From a bacterium (GTDB taxonomy: Bacteria; UBA8248), in contig OZ242260.1 of NCBI GenBank assembly GCA_965207065.1, forward strand, positions 384,001-448,000: DNA of 64,000 nt. Reading direction: 5' to 3'. The notes under the pieces are model-generated. The model searched no databases and was not told the DNA's origin. It saw nothing but the letters and a program-made list of their open reading frames with translations. Position numbers and translations under genes: made by a program. This document shows positions 37,914 to 60,518 of the stretch, piece by piece. The stretch's first letter is position 1. The number at the start of each line of letters is the position of its first letter.

Positions 37914-38120
37914 CTAGCTCTTGAATCGTCTGAGATTCGTGCTTTTCCCCGTCTCCCGCCGGTTCATCCGCTCCAGCGCAAGGCCGGCTTCGAGCACCTC
38001 CTGATTGAAGCGAAACTCCTCCCAGGAGCATCGGGCCAGCAGGTGCGGGGGAAGGCCATAGGTCTTCGCCTGGAAATGAATGACCGCCAGCAGCTCTTTT
38101 CTACGCCGCCGGAAACGCAT
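37914..38120 (-). CDS. Putative tail assembly chaperone C-terminal (GT-type) extension
   Basis: Short ORF overlapping the chaperone 3' end in another frame; position after tail tube and chaperone. Confidence 0.5.
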   Translation of the reverse strand: MRFRRRRKELLAVIHFQAKTYGLPPHLLARCSWEEFRFNQEVLEAGLALERMNRRETGKSTNLRRFKS

Positions 38121-38493
38121 CGCCTCCCGGCGCGTCCTCCCCGGGAGCAGGGGCCGCCGCCTCGTTCTGAAGCGCCGTGACCGCCGTGAAGATAGCGTCG
38201 GCATCCGCCGGGGCGAGTTCATGGATGCTCAGTTCATCGGGCAGGCAACGCCCCGGTTCTTTTTCCGTCATCGAGCCGCGCCCGGGAACGAAGCAGCGCC
38301 TCAGGATGCAATGCACCCACTCCCCGGTAAGCGCGTATCGCTCCTCCTCGCCCGCAGCGCCGTTAGCGGCCCCTGCGAACAGCTTGGGATACGCCGCCAT
38401 GTCCAGGAGATTCGGTGCGCGTACAAAGCCCTTGAGCCCCGAGGGCAGGGTGATGGGCTTGCGTCCATGGTTCCTGTATTCTGATATTTCCAC
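38101..38493 (-). CDS. Putative tail assembly chaperone
   Basis: Directly after the tail tube gene; size and ITLPSG..VRAP pattern; GTG start with GGAGGA RBS. Confidence 0.6.
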   Translation of the reverse strand: MEISEYRNHGRKPITLPSGLKGFVRAPNLLDMAAYPKLFAGAANGAAGEEERYALTGEWVHCILRRCFVPGRGSMTEKEPGRCLPDELSIHELAPADADAIFTAVTALQNEAAAPAPGEDAPGGDAFPAA

Positions 38494-38565
38494 GATTCCT
38501 CCCGTTCGTTTTTTCTGAATCAATAGCTTAACCAAATGAAAAAGAAGCCGCTTGTCGAATAACGA

Positions 38566-39705
38566 CTAGGTGAAGACGATTGCTATCTCGTCATCGCCCG
38601 CATCGCGTGCCAGGCGGAAGGGTGCATCGTAGGTCAGCAGGCCGTCGCGATCCGAAAAACCCATATCCGCGTACTGGCATCTGGGCGCGGTGATGGTGCA
38701 GATGTTCCCGGCCCTGTGGCCGACTTGCACTTTCAGAGGGAGCCTCGCGCCATTTTCCCAATTCTTGAACGCATCATTGGTGGCTATGAGTACGGCCTCG
38801 GGATCGAAGGAACCGGAGGGTGCCCGCCCCGTCACGACGGCGTTGACGTGCCCGCCGGATGCGTTGGCGCTTTGGCGCAGCACCACTTCGTTGTTCATGG
38901 CGAAGCGGATGTTCGTCACGTCGAAATGAAACCCGCCGAACGAAAAGCCGCTCATGAGGACGGGTTCGGGCGTCTGGTCGTCGTAGGACGCGCCGTCAAG
39001 GATCGGTGCGTCGCTCACCTCGAAATCGGCCGCCTCGAATTCCCAATCCACCGTGGGAACGCCATCCAGAGGGCAGTTGATGGAAAAACTCCCCATGCAG
39101 CCCAGATACATGACCCGCAATCCATCGATGAACGCCGTCAGGCAGATTCTCGTATAGCCCGATTTATCGGAGGCGGGCGCGTAAGCGACGGAGGTATCCT
39201 CGACGATGGTTTCCTTCATCGCGCACGCCTTGAACAGCAATCCATAATCCGGCGCGACGCCCGCTGCGCCCGAACCGCGCAACTCGGTGGAGAAAGAAAT
39301 CTGCGCGGAGCGCTTCCCGGGAATCGAGGGAAAAGGCGAGAGGCTCGCATCCTCCACCGCGCGTTCCAGCTGCTCTACGCTGACCTCATGAGAGAAGTTG
39401 CCCGCCCGAAACAATTCCGAGGCAGCCGCCGGTCGATCCAGGAGGCAGGCCGTGCCCGCAGCGGGGGTGGTGTCCCAGGCGTCGTCCACCGTGAGCGTGT
39501 CCGAGGTCGCGTCAAAAATACTCACCTTTCTTCTTTGCCCGACGCCCACTCCCCGGATCGTGCGCAGCACCGAGCCATTCCAGAAATCATCATCCTCGGA
39601 AAGCGCGGCGTCCACGAGGGTGGAGGCATCTGCGGAATCCGCCACGAGTTCTTTCTCTTCCGTCGCGCCAATCGTTTGCCGATCCATCAAAATCGTATCG
39701 CCCAT
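38566..39705 (-). CDS. Phage-like tail tube (major tail) protein
   Basis: FSTELRGSG.AG.APDYG.L.KACA, GCMGSFSI and TGRAPSGSFDPEA patterns; position after tail completion genes; GGAGGAG RBS. Confidence 0.75.
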   Translation of the reverse strand: MGDTILMDRQTIGATEEKELVADSADASTLVDAALSEDDDFWNGSVLRTIRGVGVGQRRKVSIFDATSDTLTVDDAWDTTPAAGTACLLDRPAAASELFRAGNFSHEVSVEQLERAVEDASLSPFPSIPGKRSAQISFSTELRGSGAAGVAPDYGLLFKACAMKETIVEDTSVAYAPASDKSGYTRICLTAFIDGLRVMYLGCMGSFSINCPLDGVPTVDWEFEAADFEVSDAPILDGASYDDQTPEPVLMSGFSFGGFHFDVTNIRFAMNNEVVLRQSANASGGHVNAVVTGRAPSGSFDPEAVLIATNDAFKNWENGARLPLKVQVGHRAGNICTITAPRCQYADMGFSDRDGLLTYDAPFRLARDAGDDEIAIVFT

Positions 39706-39778
39706 CCCTTGTTCTCCTCCTTTCAGTTTTTTGAGGCGAAGGCGCATCCCTCGCCGGTATTCATTCCCCGTTCTCGTA

Positions 39779-40312
39779 TCAATCCCGCCGAATCCGCTCT
39801 ATCGCCCGGAGCCGGATTTCGGCGTAATGGCAAAGCACGTTTCCAAACGTCCTCAGTTCAATCAGGTCCACCTGCGGAGGCTGAAGGCGCTCCAGCGAGC
39901 GGACGCGCGGGGAGCCTGATTCATCGAGGAGGCGGAGCGTCCTGTCGTCCCGGAAGCGGTCGCAAATCTCCTCAAGCAGTTCCTGAAAGGCCACCTCGCT
40001 GCCCACCGCGTCCTCGGCGCTCATGATGCCGAACAGCAAGAACGTGTGGGTTCGCCTGCTGATGCCGGCGGGCGTGAAGCCACCAGCCGCATTCGAGCCG
40101 ACCGATGCAGCCTCCTCCCCTGCTCTCTCGCGCGTCAGCACCCAGCCCCTGATCTGGGCGAGGCCGTCGCCCGTCTGCCACCGGAAATGGTCCAGGTATT
40201 TCCCCAGGTCGGCCGACCAGCGCTGATAGCTGTGAACCCGCCCTGCCCCCGCCACACTCGATATTTCCGCCAAAATGGCGTCGCCGATTTCTCTGTATCG
40301 TGAATTAGCCAC
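39779..40312 (-). CDS. Putative tail terminator/completion protein
   Basis: Gene order between gp10-like gene and tube; SEVAFQELLEEICDRF and GNVLCHYAEIRL patterns. Confidence 0.6.
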   Translation of the reverse strand: MANSRYREIGDAILAEISSVAGAGRVHSYQRWSADLGKYLDHFRWQTGDGLAQIRGWVLTRERAGEEAASVGSNAAGGFTPAGISRRTHTFLLFGIMSAEDAVGSEVAFQELLEEICDRFRDDRTLRLLDESGSPRVRSLERLQPPQVDLIELRTFGNVLCHYAEIRLRAIERIRRD

Positions 40313-40808
40313 TCATTCTCCTCGCAATCTCATCCACCAGTTCAAGAATGCGCCTATCGATTCGGCTCTGGTTCTCCTCGAAGGCGCCCGCGAACATGCG
40401 ACGCCCCGGTATCCCGTGCCGGGCGATTGATCGGGCAACGAGGAAGGACACCCTCTCGATAGACCCATCGGGCGGCCCCAGTTTGTGGGCCACCCAGCGA
40501 TACAGGGACGTGCCCTCCCTCCAGGGCGGCATTCTGCCGCCCGCCCGACGCCCGAATTCCACGTACCTGGCGTATGGGGTGCGTGAGGCGACCACGCCGC
40601 GCAACACGCTTGGGTTCTCTCCTTTGATTTCGGTGTAAATACTGCCCCTGAGGTTTCCGCTCGCGCCGATGGGCGTTCGCGCTATGACCTCGCGCCTGAG
40701 CATTCCGGTAATCTCGGCCATCGACTCGTGCGCGAGGAGAAGAACCCCCTCCCACGCGATAGCCGGCATCTCCGGCAATTCTTCAAGCGTTACATATCGA
40801 CGAAACAC
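40305..40808 (-). CDS. HK97 gp10-like neck/tail component
   Basis: RTPIGASGNLRGSI, YARYVEFG, PP..L..WV..K and GIPGRRMF..AF. Confidence 0.8.
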   Translation of the reverse strand: MFRRYVTLEELPEMPAIAWEGVLLLAHESMAEITGMLRREVIARTPIGASGNLRGSIYTEIKGENPSVLRGVVASRTPYARYVEFGRRAGGRMPPWREGTSLYRWVAHKLGPPDGSIERVSFLVARSIARHGIPGRRMFAGAFEENQSRIDRRILELVDEIARRMSG

Positions 40809-40826
40809 TCCGCCTCTCCTATCCGC

Positions 40827-41537
40827 CTAGCGATCTTCGGACGCGCCGTGCGTGAAATACTCACCGCGCGCCAGTGAAAGAAGCACGTCCCAATCGAGAG
40901 ACGCGCCCGCCGGACCCGCCACTTCGCCTTCTTTGCGGCCGAGATGGTTCTGGTATTTGCGCTCGAGTTCCCGCCCCAGGCGCGTGTATTCCGAGGACTT
41001 GCTCTGGTAGTCCACTGAATCCGCCGCGAGGGTCGGGCTCGAGGACTGGGCGAAGCGGCGGGCCAGGAGGTGACAGCCCTCCGCGGCGGCCAGCCAGGCT
41101 ACGGCGGTCCGATCGTTTTCGGGAATGCTCGTGCGCTCGTCATCGGCCGTGTGCTTGATCGTGTAGAACAGGCGAAGCGTGTGGCCCATTTGAGGAGCGA
41201 AGTACATGAGCCTGAACCTCGCCGCCGGCGTCCCCTTGGCATAGATGATCCAGGAACTCCTTCGCAAAAAGGAGGGCTTTCTCTCCCCCTGGGGATATTC
41301 CACCTCCCGGATGAAGGAGAGGGAATCGTCCCAGTCCTCGGGGAGGGGAAAATCGAACGTCTCGCTATCGCCTGAGTAATCGGCGAACGAGACGAGCGGC
41401 ACGTCTTTGCTGTAGCGCGTGAGCGCCGCGTTCACCAGATCGGCGTAGTCCGCCTCCTCGACGCCGAACTCCCGGGGCAGCGCGCCCGCCTTCAACAAGA
41501 CCTTCACCTCTTTGATGATCGTCTGCCTGCTCGCCAT
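40827..41537 (-). CDS. Putative head-tail adaptor/connector
   Basis: Position after capsid; AALTRYSKD.P, EVEYP.G and ADSVDY.SKS..Y patterns. Confidence 0.6.
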   Translation of the reverse strand: MASRQTIIKEVKVLLKAGALPREFGVEEADYADLVNAALTRYSKDVPLVSFADYSGDSETFDFPLPEDWDDSLSFIREVEYPQGERKPSFLRRSSWIIYAKGTPAARFRLMYFAPQMGHTLRLFYTIKHTADDERTSIPENDRTAVAWLAAAEGCHLLARRFAQSSSPTLAADSVDYQSKSSEYTRLGRELERKYQNHLGRKEGEVAGPAGASLDWDVLLSLARGEYFTHGASEDR

Positions 41538-41580
41538 TTCAGTTTTCTCCTCTCCTCTCGCTTCCCGGATGCAGTCGGTC

Positions 41581-41922
41581 TCAAGTCTTCAGCGCGAGCC
41601 TGGCCTCGAACGTGAACAAAGCCTCCTCCCCGCCGACGGACCACGCGAGCCTGAGCCAGGGGCCGATGTTCGCGAGCATTGCGAGGGTTTTTCCGGCCGA
41701 TGTGATTTGCTCAGGCCTGGTATGGACGAAAGCTACTTCATCATCCGCCGGGCCGGTTTGCACCTCGAAATCAAGCGTGGGCGATGCGCCCGAGACCACC
41801 TTCACGTCGATGAACAAGAGCGCCTCGGTGAAGCGGCTCACTTCGAACGCCGTGCTGCCTCCCGCGGCGACGCGGGCCGCGGGAGGAGCGAGGACTATCG
41901 TGTGGGTTCGCCTGTCGGACAT
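41581..41922 (-). CDS. Small beta-rich virion protein (possible capsid decoration)
   Basis: Follows capsid gene; VSGASPTLD..VQT and WLRL.W.V.G..FTF beta pattern; AGGAG RBS. Confidence 0.55.
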   Translation of the reverse strand: MSDRRTHTIVLAPPAARVAAGGSTAFEVSRFTEALLFIDVKVVSGASPTLDFEVQTGPADDEVAFVHTRPEQITSAGKTLAMLANIGPWLRLAWSVGGEEALFTFEARLALKT

Positions 41923-41955
41923 GGCTTCTCCTTGATAAGGGCAATCGCCATGCCA

Positions 41956-44034
41956 CTAGGCGGGCGCGCCTCGGTAAAAGCCGCGAAAGTCAAGGACGGC
42001 GCCGCCGTAGACGTGTCTGATCTTGTAGCGAATCTTGTCCGCGCTGAATCCGCTGCCTGCGGAGGGGTTGTCCTCGACGAACAGCTCGGGCTCGCGCATG
42101 TCGTCCATGAAGCCGATTTCGATTGTGTCCATGAGGCCCGGATCGGCGATCAAGTACCAATCGTTCGTCTCGGTGAGTTCGGGCACCCACAAGGGTTCGA
42201 TGCCCAGGCGGTTGATGAAGCTCGGCTGATTGGAGTTCCCGTCCGAGACAACCTTGACGGGCGACTGGGTGACGTCGAATGCCTCTTCGAGCAACTCCGT
42301 GGGGTGGACGAGATATTTCGGCCGAGCCTGGGCCGCTATTTCAACGCCTTCCTCTCCATAAAACGTCTGCTGACCCATCGCCTTGATGGCGGCGACGGCG
42401 CCCTCGTACGTGAGCTCGTTCGCGGAGGTGTTGTTGTGGTCAGCGTGGAACAGCGCATGGCCGTCGTATATGTTGGCATTGGACATGAGAAAATCGAATA
42501 CGAAGCCATTCAGGGTGCGCTGGGCCGCTCGGGCGAGACGCTGGGGAATCATGCGAATCGCGCCCATGTCGTCGTTCTGGATCATCTCCCATGTGAGATC
42601 CTCCACGCCGCCGCGCTTGGCTACGGCGTACGTCACTTCCTCATCCGTCGGGGAGGTAAGCGCCGGATAAGTGGCCTGTTCGGCGACTTTTTGCAGATCG
42701 CCGTAGCCGCCCACACGCACCCGGCGGTTCGTACGGAAATCCTTAACGGGCGTCACGGAAGAGGCGATCTTCTTCCACTGGTGAAAGCGCTCGTCCCTGA
42801 AATCGCGCAGCATGGCGCGGCGGATGGAATCTCCAAAAGCCTCGCCCCACGTGCTCGTCTGCAAGGAGGCGGAGAGGCGCCGCACCCCGTTCCAGTCCTC
42901 GGCGGCGCGGTGATAGTGGAACGTCTCTGCGAAGAACTGGCGCGGGGTCAGGCGATGTCCCGTGAAATCCTGAAACGCCTCGCTCATGAAGCGATAGGGG
43001 CGTTCGCCGTCTACCACCTCGTCGCGCGAACCCCAGAGCCCGTCGAGAGCCGCTTTCTTGCGGTCCGCCTCGTCGCGCATTACCTCCGCACGCGCGCCGA
43101 AACCACGGAGCGCGCCGCTCGCCGTGAGTTTTTCCAGCGTGGCCGCCTCAACCCGGATCGCCTCTTCGATCTCCTCTTCTGTAAAACTCCCGTCCCCGAA
43201 CTGGGCGAGCATCTTCTCCTGAACGGCTTCGGGCAACGCGGAGGCCGTCAGTTTCTGAGCGAGCAACCTGCGAGCCGCAGCCCCGGTTTCGGTTCCATCC
43301 TTCATGGTGTTTCCTCCTTTTTCCTTCAAGTCCAGCTCGAGACCAGCGTCTTCACAAGCCGCGAGGAACTGTTGCGGCGTCCAGGCATCGCCGAGCCTCT
43401 TGCCCGATTCGGGCGCCATGCTCTTGAGTTTCTTTCCGAGCTTTTCGAACATTTTCACCTCCGATTGAATGGAATGATTGGCGGCGAGACCCAGAATCCC
43501 GCCCCCGAGCTTGCCTTTGTGCACGACGTCGACGGAGTGGACCGCCAGAATCTTTTCGAAATGCAAAACGAGCCCATCGGCCTCCTCGCGGAACTCCGCC
43601 TGCGCGAGCACGTCGAAGGAAAAGCCAAAGGGCTCCTCAAGACCCCGGGCCAGCGCATCGTGCGCCAGCGCCTGAAACCAGGCCGCTGATCGCGAAACCG
43701 CAAACGTGCTCAGAAGCCCCTCCTCGCCCATGCGGACCTTGCGGTGCCAGCCGACCAGGTTCCTGATGTCGGGACCGCCCGAGGCGGCGTGGTTGGCAAA
43801 GGCTTGCGCACCCTCGAACAGGGGAGCGGCCTCGCGCAGAACGTCGCGGGGCAGGAACCACTCCCCGTCCCTCGAGTAGCCGGCGCGCGCGATCAACACC
43901 TCGAAATCCCAGGCTTCATCCGGCGGCTGCGCTTCTTCCGCAACCGCGCGGATGAGGTGGCCATGCAGCCTTAAGGTATGAGAATCCTTCTGCGCCTCGG
44001 CGCGCGCCCACATACGGTTCAACCATTTTTTCAA
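41956..44034 (-). CDS. Fused prohead protease-scaffold-major capsid protein (Mu gpT-like, HK97 fold)
   Basis: N-terminal FANH/GFS/SVDVV protease-like motifs; C-terminal DFR..RVRVGGYGDL, TWEMIQNDD.GA and DG.ALFHADHNN capsid motifs. Confidence 0.85.
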   Translation of the reverse strand: MKKWLNRMWARAEAQKDSHTLRLHGHLIRAVAEEAQPPDEAWDFEVLIARAGYSRDGEWFLPRDVLREAAPLFEGAQAFANHAASGGPDIRNLVGWHRKVRMGEEGLLSTFAVSRSAAWFQALAHDALARGLEEPFGFSFDVLAQAEFREEADGLVLHFEKILAVHSVDVVHKGKLGGGILGLAANHSIQSEVKMFEKLGKKLKSMAPESGKRLGDAWTPQQFLAACEDAGLELDLKEKGGNTMKDGTETGAAARRLLAQKLTASALPEAVQEKMLAQFGDGSFTEEEIEEAIRVEAATLEKLTASGALRGFGARAEVMRDEADRKKAALDGLWGSRDEVVDGERPYRFMSEAFQDFTGHRLTPRQFFAETFHYHRAAEDWNGVRRLSASLQTSTWGEAFGDSIRRAMLRDFRDERFHQWKKIASSVTPVKDFRTNRRVRVGGYGDLQKVAEQATYPALTSPTDEEVTYAVAKRGGVEDLTWEMIQNDDMGAIRMIPQRLARAAQRTLNGFVFDFLMSNANIYDGHALFHADHNNTSANELTYEGAVAAIKAMGQQTFYGEEGVEIAAQARPKYLVHPTELLEEAFDVTQSPVKVVSDGNSNQPSFINRLGIEPLWVPELTETNDWYLIADPGLMDTIEIGFMDDMREPELFVEDNPSAGSGFSADKIRYKIRHVYGGAVLDFRGFYRGAPA

Positions 44035-44131: not shown

Positions 44132-44184
44132 AATTTAGGGCAAGGAGACTCGAACGCGGGCCGGGCAAATGCGGGGAAATGCGC
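44132..44184 (-). promoter_or_regulatory. Shared activator box plus -10 element upstream of the capsid operon
   Basis: GCGCATTTCCCCGCATTTGC-N24-CCCTAAATT on the minus strand; near-identical copy at 56613-56665. Confidence 0.75.
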
Positions 44185-51606: not shown

Positions 51607-52707
51607 ATGAGCGAACCAAGTCCCGCCCGCCAGATAGCGCTCGACCAAGACGCCGGCGCGATATACGAGCACTTCTACGAGGAGGGCTGGACAGACGGGC
51701 TGCCCATCATCCCGCCAACCGAGGAGCGCGTCGCGGAAACCCTGCGTTACACGGACTACGCGCCGGGCGATATTATCGCCCATGTTCCGCCACGGAACGC
51801 GCCGGCCACGGCGGAAGTCATCGCCATCAACGCCGTGATGGCGGGCTGCAAGCCTGAATACCTGCCCGTGCTCATCGCCGCCGTCCAGGCCATGACGGAG
51901 CCCGCTTACAACCTATACGGCCGCCAGACGACCACCCATCCGGGCGCGCACCTGATGATCGTCCACGGGCCAGTAAGGAATGAAATCGAAGTCAACTGCC
52001 GCCAGAACGTCTTCGGCCAGGGCTGGCGAGCCAACGCGACGATGGGCCGCGCGGTGCGGCTCCTGATGATGAACGCGGGCGGCGGCATCCCCGGCGTGAC
52101 GGACATGGCCACTCACGGGCATCCGGGAAAATACTCCTACACCATCGGCGAGGATGAGGAGGGAAGCCCCTGGCCGGCATTTCACGTCGACAGGGGTTTT
52201 TCGCCGGATACTTCCGCCGTCACCATGCTCTGCGCCGAGTCGCCCCACAACGTAAACGACCTGGTGAGCAAGACGCCGCATAAATACCTGGGCACGGCGG
52301 CTTCGGCCATGAGCCACCTGGGCGCGAACGGCGTCTACCGGAGCGGGCTGCCGAGTGAGCAGATGCTCGTCCTGACAGCCGAGGCCGCCACGTGGCTATC
52401 GAACCAGGGGTGGACGAAGGCCGACGTATCCCAGTTCATCTACGAGAACGCGCGTCAGCCGATTCGTCTCATGCGTGACCGGGGGGGGTTCGACATGACG
52501 CCGCTCGCTCCTTTCGTGAATCTCGAAGAAGACGAGGACATGGCCCCCATCGTCCCGAGGCCCGAAGACATCCTCATCGTCGTAGCCGGCGGCCACGGCC
52601 GCCACATGCAGGCCGTCCTCACGGCGAGCTACAACCTGAGCGTTACAAAGGCCATCACCAGAAAAGACGGAACGCCGATTGAGTCGGTAAGGGAGTTTGT
52701 GTCGTGA
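51607..52707 (+). CDS. Conserved protein, partner of the UGSC protein
   Basis: GWTDGLPIIPPT, AINAVMAGC.PEY.PV and RANAT.GRA.RL motifs, typically seen beside UGSC genes. Confidence 0.7.
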   Translation: MSEPSPARQIALDQDAGAIYEHFYEEGWTDGLPIIPPTEERVAETLRYTDYAPGDIIAHVPPRNAPATAEVIAINAVMAGCKPEYLPVLIAAVQAMTEPAYNLYGRQTTTHPGAHLMIVHGPVRNEIEVNCRQNVFGQGWRANATMGRAVRLLMMNAGGGIPGVTDMATHGHPGKYSYTIGEDEEGSPWPAFHVDRGFSPDTSAVTMLCAESPHNVNDLVSKTPHKYLGTAASAMSHLGANGVYRSGLPSEQMLVLTAEAATWLSNQGWTKADVSQFIYENARQPIRLMRDRGGFDMTPLAPFVNLEEDEDMAPIVPRPEDILIVVAGGHGRHMQAVLTASYNLSVTKAITRKDGTPIESVREFVS

Positions 52708-52773: not shown

Positions 52774-53061
52774 TTAGGCTACCCTGAACTTATCCACCTT
52801 GATTTCGTCGGCCCGGGCGCGCGCCTTCCAAAGATCGTAAGCCATCTGCAGGCCGAGCCAGGTCTCCGGTGTCGAGCCGAACGCTTTGGACAGGCGAATC
52901 GCCATTTCCACGGAGATGCCGGTGTGTTCGTTGACCAGTTCCGACAAGGTCTGACGCGTGACGCCAATCCCCTCGGCCGCTTTCGTCACGGACAATCCGA
53001 GCGGCTCAAGACATTGCCGTTTCACGATCCCACCCGGATGTGGAGGATTTTGCATCGCCAT
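52774..53061 (-). CDS. higA: HigA antitoxin (HTH)
   Basis: NPPHPG, SVTKAA..GVTRQTLS, EMAIRLSKAFG and WLGLQMAYDL. Confidence 0.92.
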   Translation of the reverse strand: MAMQNPPHPGGIVKRQCLEPLGLSVTKAAEGIGVTRQTLSELVNEHTGISVEMAIRLSKAFGSTPETWLGLQMAYDLWKARARADEIKVDKFRVA

Positions 53062-53074
53062 CACAGTACCCTCG

Positions 53075-53353
53075 TCAATGGTAGTCGAGGTAATCTAGAT
53101 CGACTACGTCACCCTCTTCGAATCGAAAGGTTACCCGCCAATTCCCTGAAACCGTCACTGCATAATGACCCTTCAGTTCCCCCTTCAGTCGGTGGAGCCG
53201 AAAACCAGGGAGAGCAACATCTTGCGGCTGCCGACTCCTGTCCAGAACGGCCAGAATATCCCTTAGTTTCTGAACATGCTCCGGCGCGACTCGCCGCGCC
53301 GTTCGACCATCGTAGAGTGCTTTCAGGCCCCGATGTTTGAAAGACGCGATCAT
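53075..53353 (-). CDS. higB: HigB toxin (RelE/ParE family)
   Basis: MIASFKHRGLK, PGFRLH.LKG, VSGNWRVTF and DYLDYH. Confidence 0.92.
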   Translation of the reverse strand: MIASFKHRGLKALYDGRTARRVAPEHVQKLRDILAVLDRSRQPQDVALPGFRLHRLKGELKGHYAVTVSGNWRVTFRFEEGDVVDLDYLDYH

Positions 53354-54865: not shown

Positions 54866-55507
54866 TTATCTCCTCTTTAGAATCCGCTTGTGAAAAGCCT
54901 GCGGGACCACCGTGCCCCCGGCGAGGGGGGCCAGCACTCCCTCGCTCTGCGCCAGGGATTCGGCCAGCCGCGCGTAGGCGCAGGCGAAGCCGAAATGGTT
55001 CTCGTTTCGCTCATACGACAGCACCGTCTCCCCGGAGGAGCGGATGCGCGGCTTTTTCCTCAAATTCATGAGGTGACGCTCCACCTTGCCCAAAAGCGCC
55101 TCCTCCCCTGTATCTCCGGGCTGCGGCAGCAGGACCCGTCCGGCTCCCTCGTGAAACTCCTCCACGAGGTGATCCAGCAGGTCCTCGCGGTTCATCCGCA
55201 CGTGGCGACGCTCCACCCCCAGGAACGAGACTTCCCTGGTCTGCATCTCGCCCTCCGTGTGCCGCCAGATGAAGCCGCCGTCTGGATTCAGGTCGTACAC
55301 CGCGCGCGCCTCCCGGGTGTGGGGACCGCCGTCTATGACGAACGCCTCCACGCCCAGGTCCGAGAACACGGCGCGGCAGCGCTCGATGAGCCGCTCGACG
55401 GGAGGCGCTTCGAAATACATCCACCGGGCGGGCCGGCCCTCCTCGCGCACAGCAAGCGCGCAGACGTCGCCCGTGTCGATCCCGCAGAAGCGATGGCGCG
55501 CGCTCAT
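54866..55507 (-). CDS. Terminase large subunit, nuclease part (separate ORF)
   Basis: RFCGIDTGD, FVIDGGP and C-terminal NHFGFACAY RNase H-like pattern; own GGAGG RBS and ATGA overlap. Confidence 0.65.
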   Translation of the reverse strand: MSARHRFCGIDTGDVCALAVREEGRPARWMYFEAPPVERLIERCRAVFSDLGVEAFVIDGGPHTREARAVYDLNPDGGFIWRHTEGEMQTREVSFLGVERRHVRMNREDLLDHLVEEFHEGAGRVLLPQPGDTGEEALLGKVERHLMNLRKKPRIRSSGETVLSYERNENHFGFACAYARLAESLAQSEGVLAPLAGGTVVPQAFHKRILKRR

Positions 55508-56562
55508 GCGGGCGCCTCCGCCAGATGGTAGGGCGCAGCGTCGCGCAGCTTGCGGAGAAGTTCGCGCGAGATCGGCTGGGTATCGCCCGCATCGGGGGCG
55601 GCGAGGGCCGAGCAGCGAAAGCGCGCCTTCTCGCTCGGGAGGCGGGCGGCGGCCCATTTCGCCGCGACCCGGTCGAGACGCACCGCGCCGATAGCGAGTT
55701 GGGAGAGGCGATAGCTCCTGTGCCGGGGTCTCTCGCGCGCGGCCTCCCACCGCCCCGCTCCCCTGTCGAGCGCGCCGCCGCAGGCCGGACAGGCGAGCGC
55801 ATCGCCGCTAAAGACTTTCGGCCAGTGCTCCTCCAGGACGCTATCGGCATGGCACGCCTGACACCTCACATGCCAGCGTCTCCGGTCACCCGCCTCAAAC
55901 ATGGCGTGAATGCCCGCGCCCGGGGTTCTGCCGACGGCCAGGTTGAGCGTCAGGGCGAGTGACGAGGCGTCGATGCGGTCGTTAGACCACTTGAGGTTGT
56001 CCGCCGGCAGGTCGTCCACCTCGTCACGGATCAGCACATCGAGCGGGATGGATATGGCGTTGCCGATGTCCCGGAGGCCAAGGATGTAGAGAAATCGTGA
56101 GCCCCCGCGCCCGGGGAATTCCTTCAAACCCCTGGGCGACGCGCCCTTGTATTTCCCATCACGCATGAGCGAGGCGAGTCCCCTGCGCCTGAGCGTGGAG
56201 CGCACGCGCGTCTGGTCGAAGCGGTCGGCGAAATCCTGATCCGGCAGAAAATAGCCCACGTTCAGGCGGTGGATGGTGACGCAGTAGAGCGCAAAACCGA
56301 TGGCGAGGGTGGTCATGCCCACCTGCGCGCCCTTCAGGACGCTGATGGTCTGATCGGGCGTGCGGTTATTCAGAACCTCGTCGAGCGCGGAGACGACCTC
56401 CAGCATCGCCTCTCTTCCCTCGAAGGTGAACGCGCCCTTGTCGGTCGACATCTCGCTCATCAGAAACCGAGCCAACCCGTGCATCTCGCCCGAATAGCGC
56501 GATGAGCCGCCCGACGCGAGAGCCATGGCGGGCGCCCCGATGATTTTCCGGGATTTGCGCAA
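55504..56562 (-). CDS. Terminase large subunit, GpA-like ATPase part
   Basis: Walker A-like VLKGAQVGMTT, Walker B LIRDEVD, TP..GI..F..GD.R.W.V.C..C and CPACG zinc motif. Confidence 0.8.
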   Translation of the reverse strand: MRKSRKIIGAPAMALASGGSSRYSGEMHGLARFLMSEMSTDKGAFTFEGREAMLEVVSALDEVLNNRTPDQTISVLKGAQVGMTTLAIGFALYCVTIHRLNVGYFLPDQDFADRFDQTRVRSTLRRRGLASLMRDGKYKGASPRGLKEFPGRGGSRFLYILGLRDIGNAISIPLDVLIRDEVDDLPADNLKWSNDRIDASSLALTLNLAVGRTPGAGIHAMFEAGDRRRWHVRCQACHADSVLEEHWPKVFSGDALACPACGGALDRGAGRWEAARERPRHRSYRLSQLAIGAVRLDRVAAKWAAARLPSEKARFRCSALAAPDAGDTQPISRELLRKLRDAAPYHLAEAPA

Positions 56563-56612: not shown

Positions 56613-56665
56613 AATATAGGGGTTGGTGCCGGCAAACCATGACGCGCAATTGCGGGGAAATGCGC
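56613..56665 (-). promoter_or_regulatory. Shared activator box plus -10 element upstream of the terminase operon
   Basis: GCGCATTTCCCCGCAATTGC-N24-CCCTATATT on the minus strand; matches 44132-44184. Confidence 0.75.
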
Positions 56666-56674
56666 GCTCAGGTT

Positions 56675-57160
56675 CTAGTCGCGCATGTTCTCGAACTGAA
56701 GCGCGAGTTTGAGGTCGAGCTCCCGGCAGAGGGTGATCACCTGCTGCAAGTCGTCGCGCTTCTTGCCGGTCACTCTCAACTGGTCACCCTGAATCGCGAC
56801 CTGCACCTTCATTTTCGTCGCCTTCACCTTCTTGACGATCTCACGCGCCGCGTCCTGATCCACGCCTTGTTTCACCAATAGGGTCTGCCTGAGCGCGCCG
56901 CCTGCGGCGGATTCGGGTTCCTTGAAGTCGAGCGCGCGCAGATCCACCTTCCGTCTCGTGAAATGGGTATGCACCAGATCGTGCATCTGCCTGAGCTTGA
57001 AATCATCGTCAGCCAGCAGGGTGACCTCCGTATCATTTCGCTCAAGCGCGCATTTCGACCCCTTGAAATCAAACCGCTGGGCGATTTCCCGACGCACCCC
57101 GTTGATCGCGTTGTCGACTTCCTGTAAATCCGTCCTTGAAACAATGTCGAATGAAGGCAT
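56675..57160 (-). CDS. yajQ: YajQ family nucleotide-binding protein
   Basis: MPSFDIVS, RFDFKG and IQGDQLRVTGKKRDDLQ. Confidence 0.95.
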   Translation of the reverse strand: MPSFDIVSRTDLQEVDNAINGVRREIAQRFDFKGSKCALERNDTEVTLLADDDFKLRQMHDLVHTHFTRRKVDLRALDFKEPESAAGGALRQTLLVKQGVDQDAAREIVKKVKATKMKVQVAIQGDQLRVTGKKRDDLQQVITLCRELDLKLALQFENMRD

Positions 57161-58998: not shown

Positions 58999-60518
58999 GG
59001 GTCTGTTGAAAAACCCCCGGCATTGTGATTGGGTGTAAGGACACTATCTCGCCCGAGATGGGAGTTCCCTCGATGATAGGCAGCAAGAGGCGCGAGCAGA
59101 TGGATTTGTTCGTGGCGGGCTCGCTGGATCGGCTGATCCCCGAGGATCACGTTCTGTACCGCGTGCATCAGGTGCTGGATTTGAGTTGGCTTCGGGAGGA
59201 GGTGGCGGATTGCTATTGCGCGGACAACGGTCGTCCGGGGATCGACCCGGAGGTGGCGGTTCGCCTGATGCTGGCGGGTCTTCTGCTGGGCTACGTTCAC
59301 GACCGCCGTCTGCTTCGCGAGGCGCGGGCGCACCTGGCGATCCGGTGGTTCATCGGGTACGGGCTGCACGAGGAGTTGCCGGACCATTCGAGCCTGACGC
59401 GGATTCGTCAGCGCTGGGGGGAGGCGCGCTTCCGGGCGATATTCCGCCGGACGGTGCAGGCGTGCCTGGAGGCGAAGGTGGCGAAGGGGGAGGTGGTTCA
59501 CGTGGACGCTTCCCTGATCCGTGCGGACGTGAGCTGGGAGAGTCTGGCGGCGCACCACGCGGACGAGGTGATTCGGGAGAATCCCGTGGAGGATAAGCCT
59601 GAGAAGAAGGGGCGTGGCCGCGGCGGCGGGGGACCGGTGAGCCGGACGGACCCCGACGCGCGGCTTGCGCGCAAGAGCGCGCGGGCGAGGTTCGAGCCGA
59701 GCTACAAGCACCACGCGGTGGTGGACGATGAGGGGGGTGTGGTTCTCGACGTGTCGGTGACGGAGGGGACGCTGAACGAGCGGGAGATGATGGCGTCCCA
59801 TATAGAGGCGGTAAGCGAGTTGTCGGGCCGCGCGCCGGAGATGGTGACGGCGGATTCGGGGTATGCGTATTCGAAGGTGTACGCGGCATTGGAGGGTCGG
59901 GGCGTGTCCGCGCTCATCCCGGCGAAGAAAGAACCCTCGCAGAGCCGGGTTCCGTTGCGGCTGTTCCGCTACGATGCGCGCCACGGGATCGTGAAGTGTC
60001 CGGGTGGCAAGACGCTGCGTCCCCGGCGGAGCGAGGAGCGGGGGCGCTACTATGGTTCGAGGACGCGGGATTGCGCGGGCTGCGCGCTCAGGTCCGATTG
60101 TCTGCCGAAGTCGCAAACGAGCAAGGAGGTTTTGATTCCCAACGAGTACCCGGCGCTGTTGCGCGCGCGCCGGCGCCATGCGCGGTGGGGAGGGGACGAG
60201 CGCCGGCTGTGGCGTCGGCACATGGGGCGCTCGGAGGGTTATCACGGGGAAGCGAAGAGTTGGCACGGACTGGGGCGGGCGATGCGCCGCGGTCTGGAGA
60301 ACGTGCGGATCCAGTCCTACCTGACGGCGATGGCGGTGAACCTCAAGCGGCTGGCCGCCGCCCTTGCGGCGCGTATATTCGCCCTGTGGAGGGCCTGTGC
60401 CGCCCGGAAACGCCGTCTGCGCGCACATGGCGCCCTCACGCGCCGATGGGGCTCCCTCTCCGCCGCCGCGTGAACCGCCATACCGCCCGCTTCAAAAACG
60501 GAGTTTTTCAACAGGCCC
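58999..60518 (+). mobile_element. IS1182-family insertion sequence
   Basis: Terminal IRs GGGTCTGTTGAAAAA / TTTTTCAACAGGCCC, flanking direct repeat TTGAG and an internal transposase. Confidence 0.9.
59073..60473 (+). CDS. IS1182-family DDE transposase
   Basis: LIPEDH, GRPGIDP, LPDHSSL, VDAS.I.A, SRTDPDA, ADSGY and RGLENV...NLKRL. Confidence 0.9.
   Translation: MIGSKRREQMDLFVAGSLDRLIPEDHVLYRVHQVLDLSWLREEVADCYCADNGRPGIDPEVAVRLMLAGLLLGYVHDRRLLREARAHLAIRWFIGYGLHEELPDHSSLTRIRQRWGEARFRAIFRRTVQACLEAKVAKGEVVHVDASLIRADVSWESLAAHHADEVIRENPVEDKPEKKGRGRGGGGPVSRTDPDARLARKSARARFEPSYKHHAVVDDEGGVVLDVSVTEGTLNEREMMASHIEAVSELSGRAPEMVTADSGYAYSKVYAALEGRGVSALIPAKKEPSQSRVPLRLFRYDARHGIVKCPGGKTLRPRRSEERGRYYGSRTRDCAGCALRSDCLPKSQTSKEVLIPNEYPALLRARRRHARWGGDERRLWRRHMGRSEGYHGEAKSWHGLGRAMRRGLENVRIQSYLTAMAVNLKRLAAALAARIFALWRACAARKRRLRAHGALTRRWGSLSAAA

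Follow-up and report, generated by a model that had tools for sequence, protein, structure and literature searches.

The large terminase (TerL) of a phage-derived gene set in a bacterium of the GTDB lineage UBA8248 is encoded by two separate genes, one for an ATPase chain (TerL-N) and one for a nuclease chain (TerL-C), and this division is neither a sequencing error nor a recent lesion. The genes lie in a 64,000-nucleotide (nt) stretch of the chromosome (GenBank assembly GCA_965207065.1, contig OZ242260.1, positions 384,001 to 448,000), which is called the window below and whose own numbering is used throughout. The two-chain terminase probably belongs to a vertically inherited, scattered and phage-derived particle system that resembles a gene transfer agent (GTA).

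The large terminase is divided between two overlapping genes

We scanned the genes of the window against Pfam, PHROG and NCBIfam profiles. The two terminase genes and a portal gene lie together on the minus strand, as follows.

55504–56562, minus strand: TerL-N (ORF1), terminase ATPase chain, 352 amino acids (aa), with a zinc ribbon and a putative C-terminal docking tail at about residues 309–352
54866–55507, minus strand: TerL-C (ORF2), terminase nuclease chain with a predicted RNase H-like fold, 213 aa
55504–55519, minus strand: junction, with an ATGA stop/start overlap (55504–55507) and a GGAGG (55515–55519) within the last TerL-N codons
53514–54863, minus strand: portal gene, 449 aa (phrog_10963 portal, E 3e-46)

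TerL-N begins with a TTG codon, with GGGAGGAG standing 8 nt 5′ of it. It matched Pfam GpA_ATPase (PF05876; E 2.6e-15, residues 68–266) and positions 17–345 of the 576 of phrog_675, 'terminase large subunit' (E 7.3e-50), and its cysteine pairs follow the pattern CxxC...CxxC (C234, C237, C258 and C261). An earlier reading of the window made from its letters alone, hereafter the original prediction, had proposed a GpA-like ATPase/zinc-motif open reading frame (ORF) ending at 55504, and the PF05876 and phrog_675 matches on the minus strand agree with it. TerL-C matched positions 358–549 of the same PHROG (E 6.5e-10) and had no match in the Pfam or NCBIfam scans. It carries the acidic motifs FCGIDTGD and FVIDGGP; the second ORF with GIDTG and VIDGG, which had been proposed to start in an ATGA overlap, is thus present, and its GGAGG precedes the ATG by 7 nt. 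The portal gene starts 2 nt past the TerL-C stop, and its product is 39.5% identical to a protein of Microcystis phage Mae-JY22. That phage was considered and rejected, because it shares the portal but its TerL is unrelated.

The junction is conserved across species

One genome per species was scanned, which yielded 25 loci in metagenome-assembled genomes labelled Nitrospinota, Nitrospinaceae or Tectomicrobia, and the gene order was identical at all 25. With the window added to these 25, the junction was readable in 24, one locus being masked (L024) and one cut by its contig end (L025). Two cistrons were found at every readable junction, and 22 of the 24 had a 4-nt overlap, as ATGA in 18 and as GTGA in 4. 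The other two had spacers, one of 67 nt in the +1 frame (L022) and one of 243 nt in the same frame that contains two stops (L023). Such keeping of the junction geometry in other species is more than chance, which bears out the view that an overlap with its own ribosome-binding site is not a random frameshift. Furthermore, contigs from four sequencing runs of three studies that span 55200–55800 have the junction without an indel, the best-matching run of the four being possibly the window's own source; one run has 6 extra nt, in frame, at 55441, and this was the only indel in the interval. The split is thus conserved in orthologues and also supported by independent contigs as far as these four runs are independent of the window.

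A sequencing or assembly error, a recent frameshift in this strain, or programmed frameshifting to a fused protein has next to no probability of being the explanation. An assembly of this single-contig type can carry indels, and the −1 frame is open for 81 codons upstream of the TerL-C start; the recurrence of the junction and the agreement of the four runs speak against all three versions. Moreover, because the three frame relations differ and the in-frame spacer of L023 holds stops, no single recoding event could fuse all of the pairs.

A word-based search recovered 52 standalone TerL-C homologues of about 215 aa and no fused TerL among 5,169 longer candidates, a result that also counts against a frameshift and is weak evidence alone. 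A profile run against 1.84 billion representatives gave scores above 300 bits for no more than two full-length standalone clusters, and the next matches, at 112 bits or less, were mostly TerLs of 500–600 aa aligned at positions of about 330–550. One short nuclease-only match that was followed up (P0055) proved to be a fragment of a fused TerL; for another, outside the family (P0058), nothing was found in viral contigs. Inside the family, no fused TerL-N/TerL-C form was found by word-based, profile or family-genome searches.

The closest viral relative was a single-chain TerL of 560 aa on the IMG/VR contig UViG_3300031111_000022 (L031). Its N-terminal 341 residues are 43% identical to TerL-N residues 15–347, it is 32% identical to TerL-C, and it is collinear with both chains; the point where the chains meet takes about 8 residues in the viral protein and 10 in the pair of the window. 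The two terminases share domain order, the phrog_675 and PF05876 matches, a gp27-like gene upstream and a portal gene downstream. They differ in that the viral TerL is one polypeptide on a viral contig with an adjacent small terminase (TerS) gene, whereas the terminase of the window is chromosomal and made of two cistrons with its TerS candidate 16.6 kb away; the portal of L031 is unrelated to the window's portal by BLASTP. No intein halves stand at the chain ends, because these ends are collinear with the fused viral TerL, carry no extra residues and leave no room between them. The ATPase and the RNase H-like nuclease of a TerL are thus both found here, and on two polypeptides instead of one. 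Judged from these alignments, the ancestral terminase was one fused chain, and the split dates from the base of the bacterial family.

Both chains are under selection and are predicted to dock

An AlphaFold model of TerL-C had a predicted local distance difference test score (pLDDT) of 85.7, and its best Foldseek match was the G20c terminase nuclease (5m1f; E 3.5e-5, template modelling score 0.57). Further matches were the nuclease domains of SPP1, Sf6, human cytomegalovirus UL89, P74-26 and T4 gp17, with RuvC ranked below the terminase nucleases. The RNase H-like fold proposed for the second ORF is therefore well matched by the model. In 17 TerL-C sequences reaching down to 51% identity, D11 (of GIDTG), D59 (of VIDGG), E116, E117 and E169-N170-H171 were invariant, and the metal-binding residues are probably among these conserved acidic positions. 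In 12 TerL-N sequences, K77/G82/T84/T85, D180-E181 and the four zinc-ribbon cysteines were invariant, as were the motifs LKGAQVGxTT (P-loop) and LxRDEVDD (Walker B strand), which we take to be Walker A and Walker B with the catalytic Glu; the last 45 residues were largely invariant as well.

The median pairwise ratio of nonsynonymous to synonymous substitution rates (dN/dS) was 0.23 for TerL-N, 0.21 for TerL-C and 0.15 for the portal, compared with 0.15 for amt and 0.11 for orf366 in the flanks. Both terminase chains are under purifying selection. TerL-N, TerL-C and the portal are each intact in 23 of the 25 loci, and the exceptions, other than the broken genes described in the Discussion, are contig ends.

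Structure prediction of TerL-N together with TerL-C gave an interface score (ipSAE) of 0.82, compared with 0.01 for the best control. In a calibration that is rough because our own alignments were used, 58 of 80 solved complexes attained this level, as did 2 of 110 mismatched pairs. The runs shared at least 80% of contacts, with a partner pLDDT of 81–82, and placed TerL-N residues 309–352 against residues 20–51 and 112–151 of TerL-C. Sequence searches of the PDB returned no match for either chain.

The other phage-derived genes are scattered along the chromosome

A capsid-neck-tube cluster (37914–44034) lies 9.5 kb downstream of the terminase-portal operon on the same strand. Its genes are the following.

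41956–44034, minus strand: prohead protease/scaffold–major capsid fusion, 692 aa (PF25209 Phage_capsid_4, E 7.4e-47, residues 391–688)
41581–41922, minus strand: head/neck gene, 113 aa, first of a trio at 40305–41922
40827–41537, minus strand: head/neck gene, 236 aa
40305–40808, minus strand: HK97 gp10-like Neck1/tail completion gene, 167 aa (phrog_5, E 8e-13; PF04883)
39779–40312, minus strand: gene of 177 aa
38566–39747, minus strand: tail tube gene, 393 aa (PF18906 Phage_tube_2, E 3.3e-14; phrog_290)
38101–38535 and 37914–38222, minus strand: pair of small ORFs that overlap, in the position typical of tail assembly chaperones

The capsid fusion also matched phrog_29592 and phrog_4523, 'major head and protease protein', and stayed below the cut-off of the NCBIfam model for a prohead protease/major capsid protein fusion. 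It is present in 33 of 41 other genomes of the family, 6–13 kb from TerL-C. The order of the head/neck trio is kept in genome G039 and partly in G004, and the order from 37914 to 40312 is likewise kept in G039, where both small ORFs are conserved. Their position and overlap suggest that the small ORFs may be tail assembly chaperones. They resemble the frameshift-linked chaperones of siphophages, and the tape-measure gene that usually comes next is missing here. Between and around the clusters lie cellular genes for F420 biosynthesis, a cdaA-like cyclase, a deaminase and luciferase-like monooxygenases.

A TerS candidate of 190 aa and Mu gp27 type, scoring above the cut-off of PF11985 (Phage_Mu_Gp27), was found 16.6 kb upstream of TerL-N, which is 9.2 kb beyond the window end. 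It is homologous to the gene directly preceding the fused TerL in L031 (PF11985, E 2.7e-20), and its phyletic pattern is the same as that of the split TerL. Beside it, about 17–19 kb upstream, stand a holin (PF11351 GTA_holin_3TM) and a phage lysozyme (PF00959). The original prediction had noted yajQ in place of a TerS gene upstream, which is correct at the locus itself and does not hold for the genome; the argument for a GTA that had been built on a missing TerS therefore fails, and the GTA idea stands instead on scattered loci that are inherited together, lost together and under selection. A HicA/HicB-like pair adjoins the TerS candidate (L035, 8467–9054).

The tail genes of this genome lie at 2.49 Mb (L034), about 2 Mb from the other loci at about 0.42–0.46 Mb. 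The 2.49-Mb tail gene sits in a run of unannotatable ORFs that remained nearly blank in PHROG and Pfam scans, and it is assigned to the set by synteny in G039, G010 and G004: in G039 and G010 the tail gene and its neighbour directly follow the tube cluster, and in G004, a distant relative from another family, the gene after the tube has its homologue at 2.49 Mb here. Proteins that a language model placed near the tail protein are viral, one of them TipJ-like, and serve as leads only. G004 also holds a contiguous cluster (L032/L033; L033 3918–5600) of a fused TerL of a different PHROG family, a portal, a protease-like gene, a capsid fusion, neck, tube and tail, which may represent the ancestral arrangement or a related prophage.

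No integration or replication genes were found in the annotated stretches (window 29406–58842, L034 and L035), where the neighbours are F420 biosynthesis genes, amt, yajQ, a cdaA-like gene, monooxygenases, hydrolases and toxin-antitoxin pairs. With loci at about 0.42–0.46 Mb and at 2.49 Mb, the gene set would be unable to travel as a unit in one tailed-phage head.

Taken without the capsid fusion, the terminase-portal operon could be seen as standing on its own, as a decoy or a parasite of the capsids of infecting phages. Only three phage-like genes are present at the site, the neighbours differ at L023, and an HK97-type capsid (PF05065) occurs in just 3 of 42 family genomes. The capsid fusion that the Pfam scan revealed 9.5 kb away makes this idea highly improbable: the PF25209 capsid shares both its phyletic distribution and its upstream element with the terminase, and the four marker genes described below are lost together. 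Encapsulin (PF04454), lambda E (PF03864) and Mu gpT (PF10124) gave no match in the window's own genome. An HK97-type head cluster at 3.88 Mb was tried as the capsid partner and rejected as sporadic, its capsid protein being found in 5 of the 42 family genomes. This head-only cluster lies outside the window on the minus strand (C1:3876000–3885000; L029 4005–12852) and consists of an unsplit TerL (476 aa, phrog_9), an HK97-type capsid, a protease, an adaptor, a head protein, a portal and an HNH gene. It resembles capsid-forming satellites or a prophage remnant.

The gene set is inherited and lost together

Four markers (TerL-C, the capsid fusion, the tail gene and the TerS candidate) were searched in all 51 genomes of the phylum. 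All four were present in 29 of the 42 genomes of the window's family and all four were absent in 7 (G023, G024, G038 and four small genomes of genus g8); the 6 genomes with a mixed pattern are every one a fragmented assembly. TerL-C and the TerS candidate were found in none of 10 genomes of other families. G023 keeps the gene order of the window, with 425 nt replacing the 6.3-kb capsid-tube cluster, and its terminase-portal operon is reduced to an 86-nt remnant of the portal 3′ end. This synteny and the portal remnant indicate separate secondary deletions.

Divergence in the operon parallels divergence in its flanks (Mantel rho 0.86; none of 2,000 permutations as high), and dN/dS was 0.17 for the capsid, 0.25 for TerS and 0.26 for the tail gene (7 genomes, 21 pairs each). 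Thus, the gene set is inherited vertically within one family and is under purifying selection.

These data also bear on the view that the genes are a cryptic prophage, broken up by rearrangement and decaying, in which the split is an old functionless frameshift. The phage origin is clear, cellular genes interrupt the set, a few copies are broken and seven genomes have lost it. Nevertheless, this view is very unlikely: the dN/dS values of six genes (0.15–0.26) are like those of flanking housekeeping genes, the three window genes are each intact in nearly all loci, and the junction with its Shine-Dalgarno sequence is kept or is replaced by spacers with new starts. In addition, 20 loci have a yajQ match, and in 10 of these only fragments of that gene are matched, next to a module that is whole. 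Scattered loci were lost together, and since decaying prophages preferentially lose the portal and terminase first (PMC7744054), simple decay is disfavoured.

A direct repeat stands upstream of the phage-derived loci

Two copies of a repeat were located in the window.

56645–56663, minus strand: 19-nt tandem direct repeat, about 100 nt upstream of TerL-N, in the likely promoter region of the operon
44164–44182, minus strand: second copy, about 150 nt upstream of the capsid fusion, an exact pattern match

The copy at TerL-N is followed by a conserved CCTATATTCC and a hairpin, and it stood at −98 to −102 of TerL-N in 19 of 20 loci examined. All five loci (terminase, capsid, TerS, lysis and tail) have the repeat upstream, on the coding strand, and a −10-like hexamer follows it after about 25 nt. 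Shared upstream windows numbered 14, against a mean of 0.08 in 25 shuffles. This suggests that the particle genes are under host-type promoter control. The repeat consists of two 10-nt units; its matches often form oppositely oriented pairs 250–450 nt apart, and many copies have near-identical downstream sequence. It may be the site of a global regulator, an unusual promoter class or a small repeat element.

Genes around the operon

The operon is followed downstream by a HigBA pair and then by convergent cellular genes, and no ORF lies between yajQ and TerL-N.

56675–57160, minus strand: yajQ (DUF520; E 5e-62), directly upstream of TerL-N
52774–53353, minus strand: HigB/HigA pair between the portal and orf366
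51607–52707, plus strand: orf366, convergent to the portal and conserved beside it within the genus, with no Pfam family
59025–60473, plus strand: ORF of 482 aa just past amt, IS-type DDE transposase-like as judged from its translation alone

The HigB/HigA pair is found in the window's genome only, and other species have nothing or different inserts at this position. orf366 belongs to a large paralogous family, with 13 matches in G023 and 9 in G024. yajQ is intact in the window and nine other loci; the fragmentary matches are in 10 further loci of the same genus (L001, L003, L004, L006, L009–L011, L012, L019 and L020), where the terminase-portal operon is whole.

Comparison with known systems

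RcGTA of Rhodobacter capsulatus offers a parallel, being likewise a phage-derived head-tail set without replication or integration genes. The genes of RcGTA are spread over at least five loci, with host proteins as their regulators (PMC7947584), and RcGTA has a small terminase (PMC6854486); the word 'split' is absent from the main text of PMC7947584. The holin of the present set belongs to PF11351 (GTA_holin_3TM), a Pfam family named for GTA release. In contrast to RcGTA, the capsid here is PF25209 and not PF05065, TerL is GpA-type and split, and the packaging genes stand apart from the head genes. The present set is not homologous to that of RcGTA: no NCBIfam GTA model was matched by the 10 proteins compared, and only the capsid fusion matched any model. 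Of the traits of GTAs as a class, it has phage-like structural and lysis genes, with no replication, integration or lysogeny genes in the annotated stretches, vertical inheritance under purifying selection, and a layout that would not let it transfer its own genes as a unit.

Other terminases in pieces differ from this one. A 'fractured' gp17-like terminase from marine metagenomes is also encoded by two separate genes, and its halves carry split-intein parts of 33–122 residues (Dassa et al. 2009, PMC2677866) and would be spliced into one chain. In the phi29 packaging ATPase gp16, the nuclease domain is described as vestigial (PMC7672431), so that in both systems the ATPase chain has no active nuclease domain of its own to cut DNA. 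phi29 has lost nuclease activity altogether, whereas in the present pair a separate chain retains the invariant acidic residues.

PBSX-type defective prophages form chromosomally encoded, non-infectious particles filled with host DNA, which leave the cell by lysis; their clusters are contiguous and their terminase is a single chain. Defective phages that package host DNA count as GTA-like.

Judged from listings, literature searches on split terminases led to no cases other than introns, inteins, the naming of P2 gpP/gpM and herpesviruses, so that nothing was found in print on a two-gene terminase of this kind. Judged by title, no GTA was found for Nitrospin- or Tectomicrobia-labelled bacteria, and the published accounts of these bacteria that were examined make no mention of phage, capsid or terminase.

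Discussion

Because the genes are scattered, are under selection and have no integration or replication genes with them in the annotated stretches, they most likely form a GTA-like system. In the mechanism that we propose, the motor chain with the ATPase comes from the first gene, and the chain with the RNase H-like nuclease from the second. TerL-C would be translated from its own start, coupled to TerL-N through the ATGA overlap and the internal Shine-Dalgarno sequence. The conserved tail of TerL-N would then dock on TerL-C, a predicted reassembly of the single-chain TerL arrangement. The terminase pair and the portal form one operon of a larger phage-derived set, with the gp27-like TerS, holin and lysozyme upstream, the capsid fusion, neck and tube downstream, and the distal tail genes 2 Mb away. 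From this set, a host-controlled, non-replicating phage-like particle would be made. Reassembly of the chains, production of particles, and packaging and transfer of host DNA are what these genes would predict.

Several observations weigh against this reading. Kin genomes are not independent, so the marker counts overstate the number of events, and a minimum of about three losses would account for the absences. The upstream repeat has 109 matches in the genome (three mismatches or fewer; none in the reversed genome), which makes it a general host element and no dedicated regulon or switch. TerL-C carries a frameshift in L019 and a TGA in G039, the portal has frameshifts in L015 and a stop in L024, and the tail gene carries stops in G031 and G019; the system is therefore dispensable and sometimes decaying, or alternatively these are assembly errors. 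A search of public sequencing runs turned up no RNA run with the region, a blank that speaks neither for nor against expression. The predicted complex may owe its score in part to single-chain TerL structures that the model had learned, and TerL-N alone models poorly (AlphaFold pLDDT 46), too poorly for a structure search. No clear tape-measure gene was found with PHROG and Pfam, and several tail ORFs had no family match in these scans.

The same gene set could instead make a particle that does not transfer genes, such as a PBSX-like killer, a phage-like bacteriocin or an agent of phage interference, with the split merely tolerated. All evidence for domestication fits such a particle equally, and lysis genes are present. 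We consider it rather unlikely, as the ATPase and nuclease motifs, the portal and the TerS candidate are under selection, which argues for DNA packaging, and the holin is in a family named for GTA release; the sequences at hand cannot separate a killer-particle role from a GTA role.

If the GTA-like reading is taken further, one could tentatively imagine an independently domesticated GTA in an uncultivated, sponge- and groundwater-associated family, in which the terminase has been cut into a motor and a dockable nuclease and the loci have been placed on a host promoter element. Separable and possibly regulated cutting could then underlie sequence-independent headful packaging. This fuller picture is possible, though we lean against it in all its parts together.

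TerL is usually treated as a single chain whose two activities are coupled through a linker. Chains that are kept separate under selection across seven genera offer a natural system for studying communication between motor and nuclease. Prophage and GTA finders that need contiguous clusters or a full-length TerL would miss such a system, since its genes are scattered and no Pfam or NCBIfam model matches the portal, the nuclease chain or most of the tail genes. If it is a GTA, it would be a new lineage, distinct from RcGTA, in a phylum without a reported one in the literature searched, and it would point to particle-mediated gene exchange in sponge symbiont communities.

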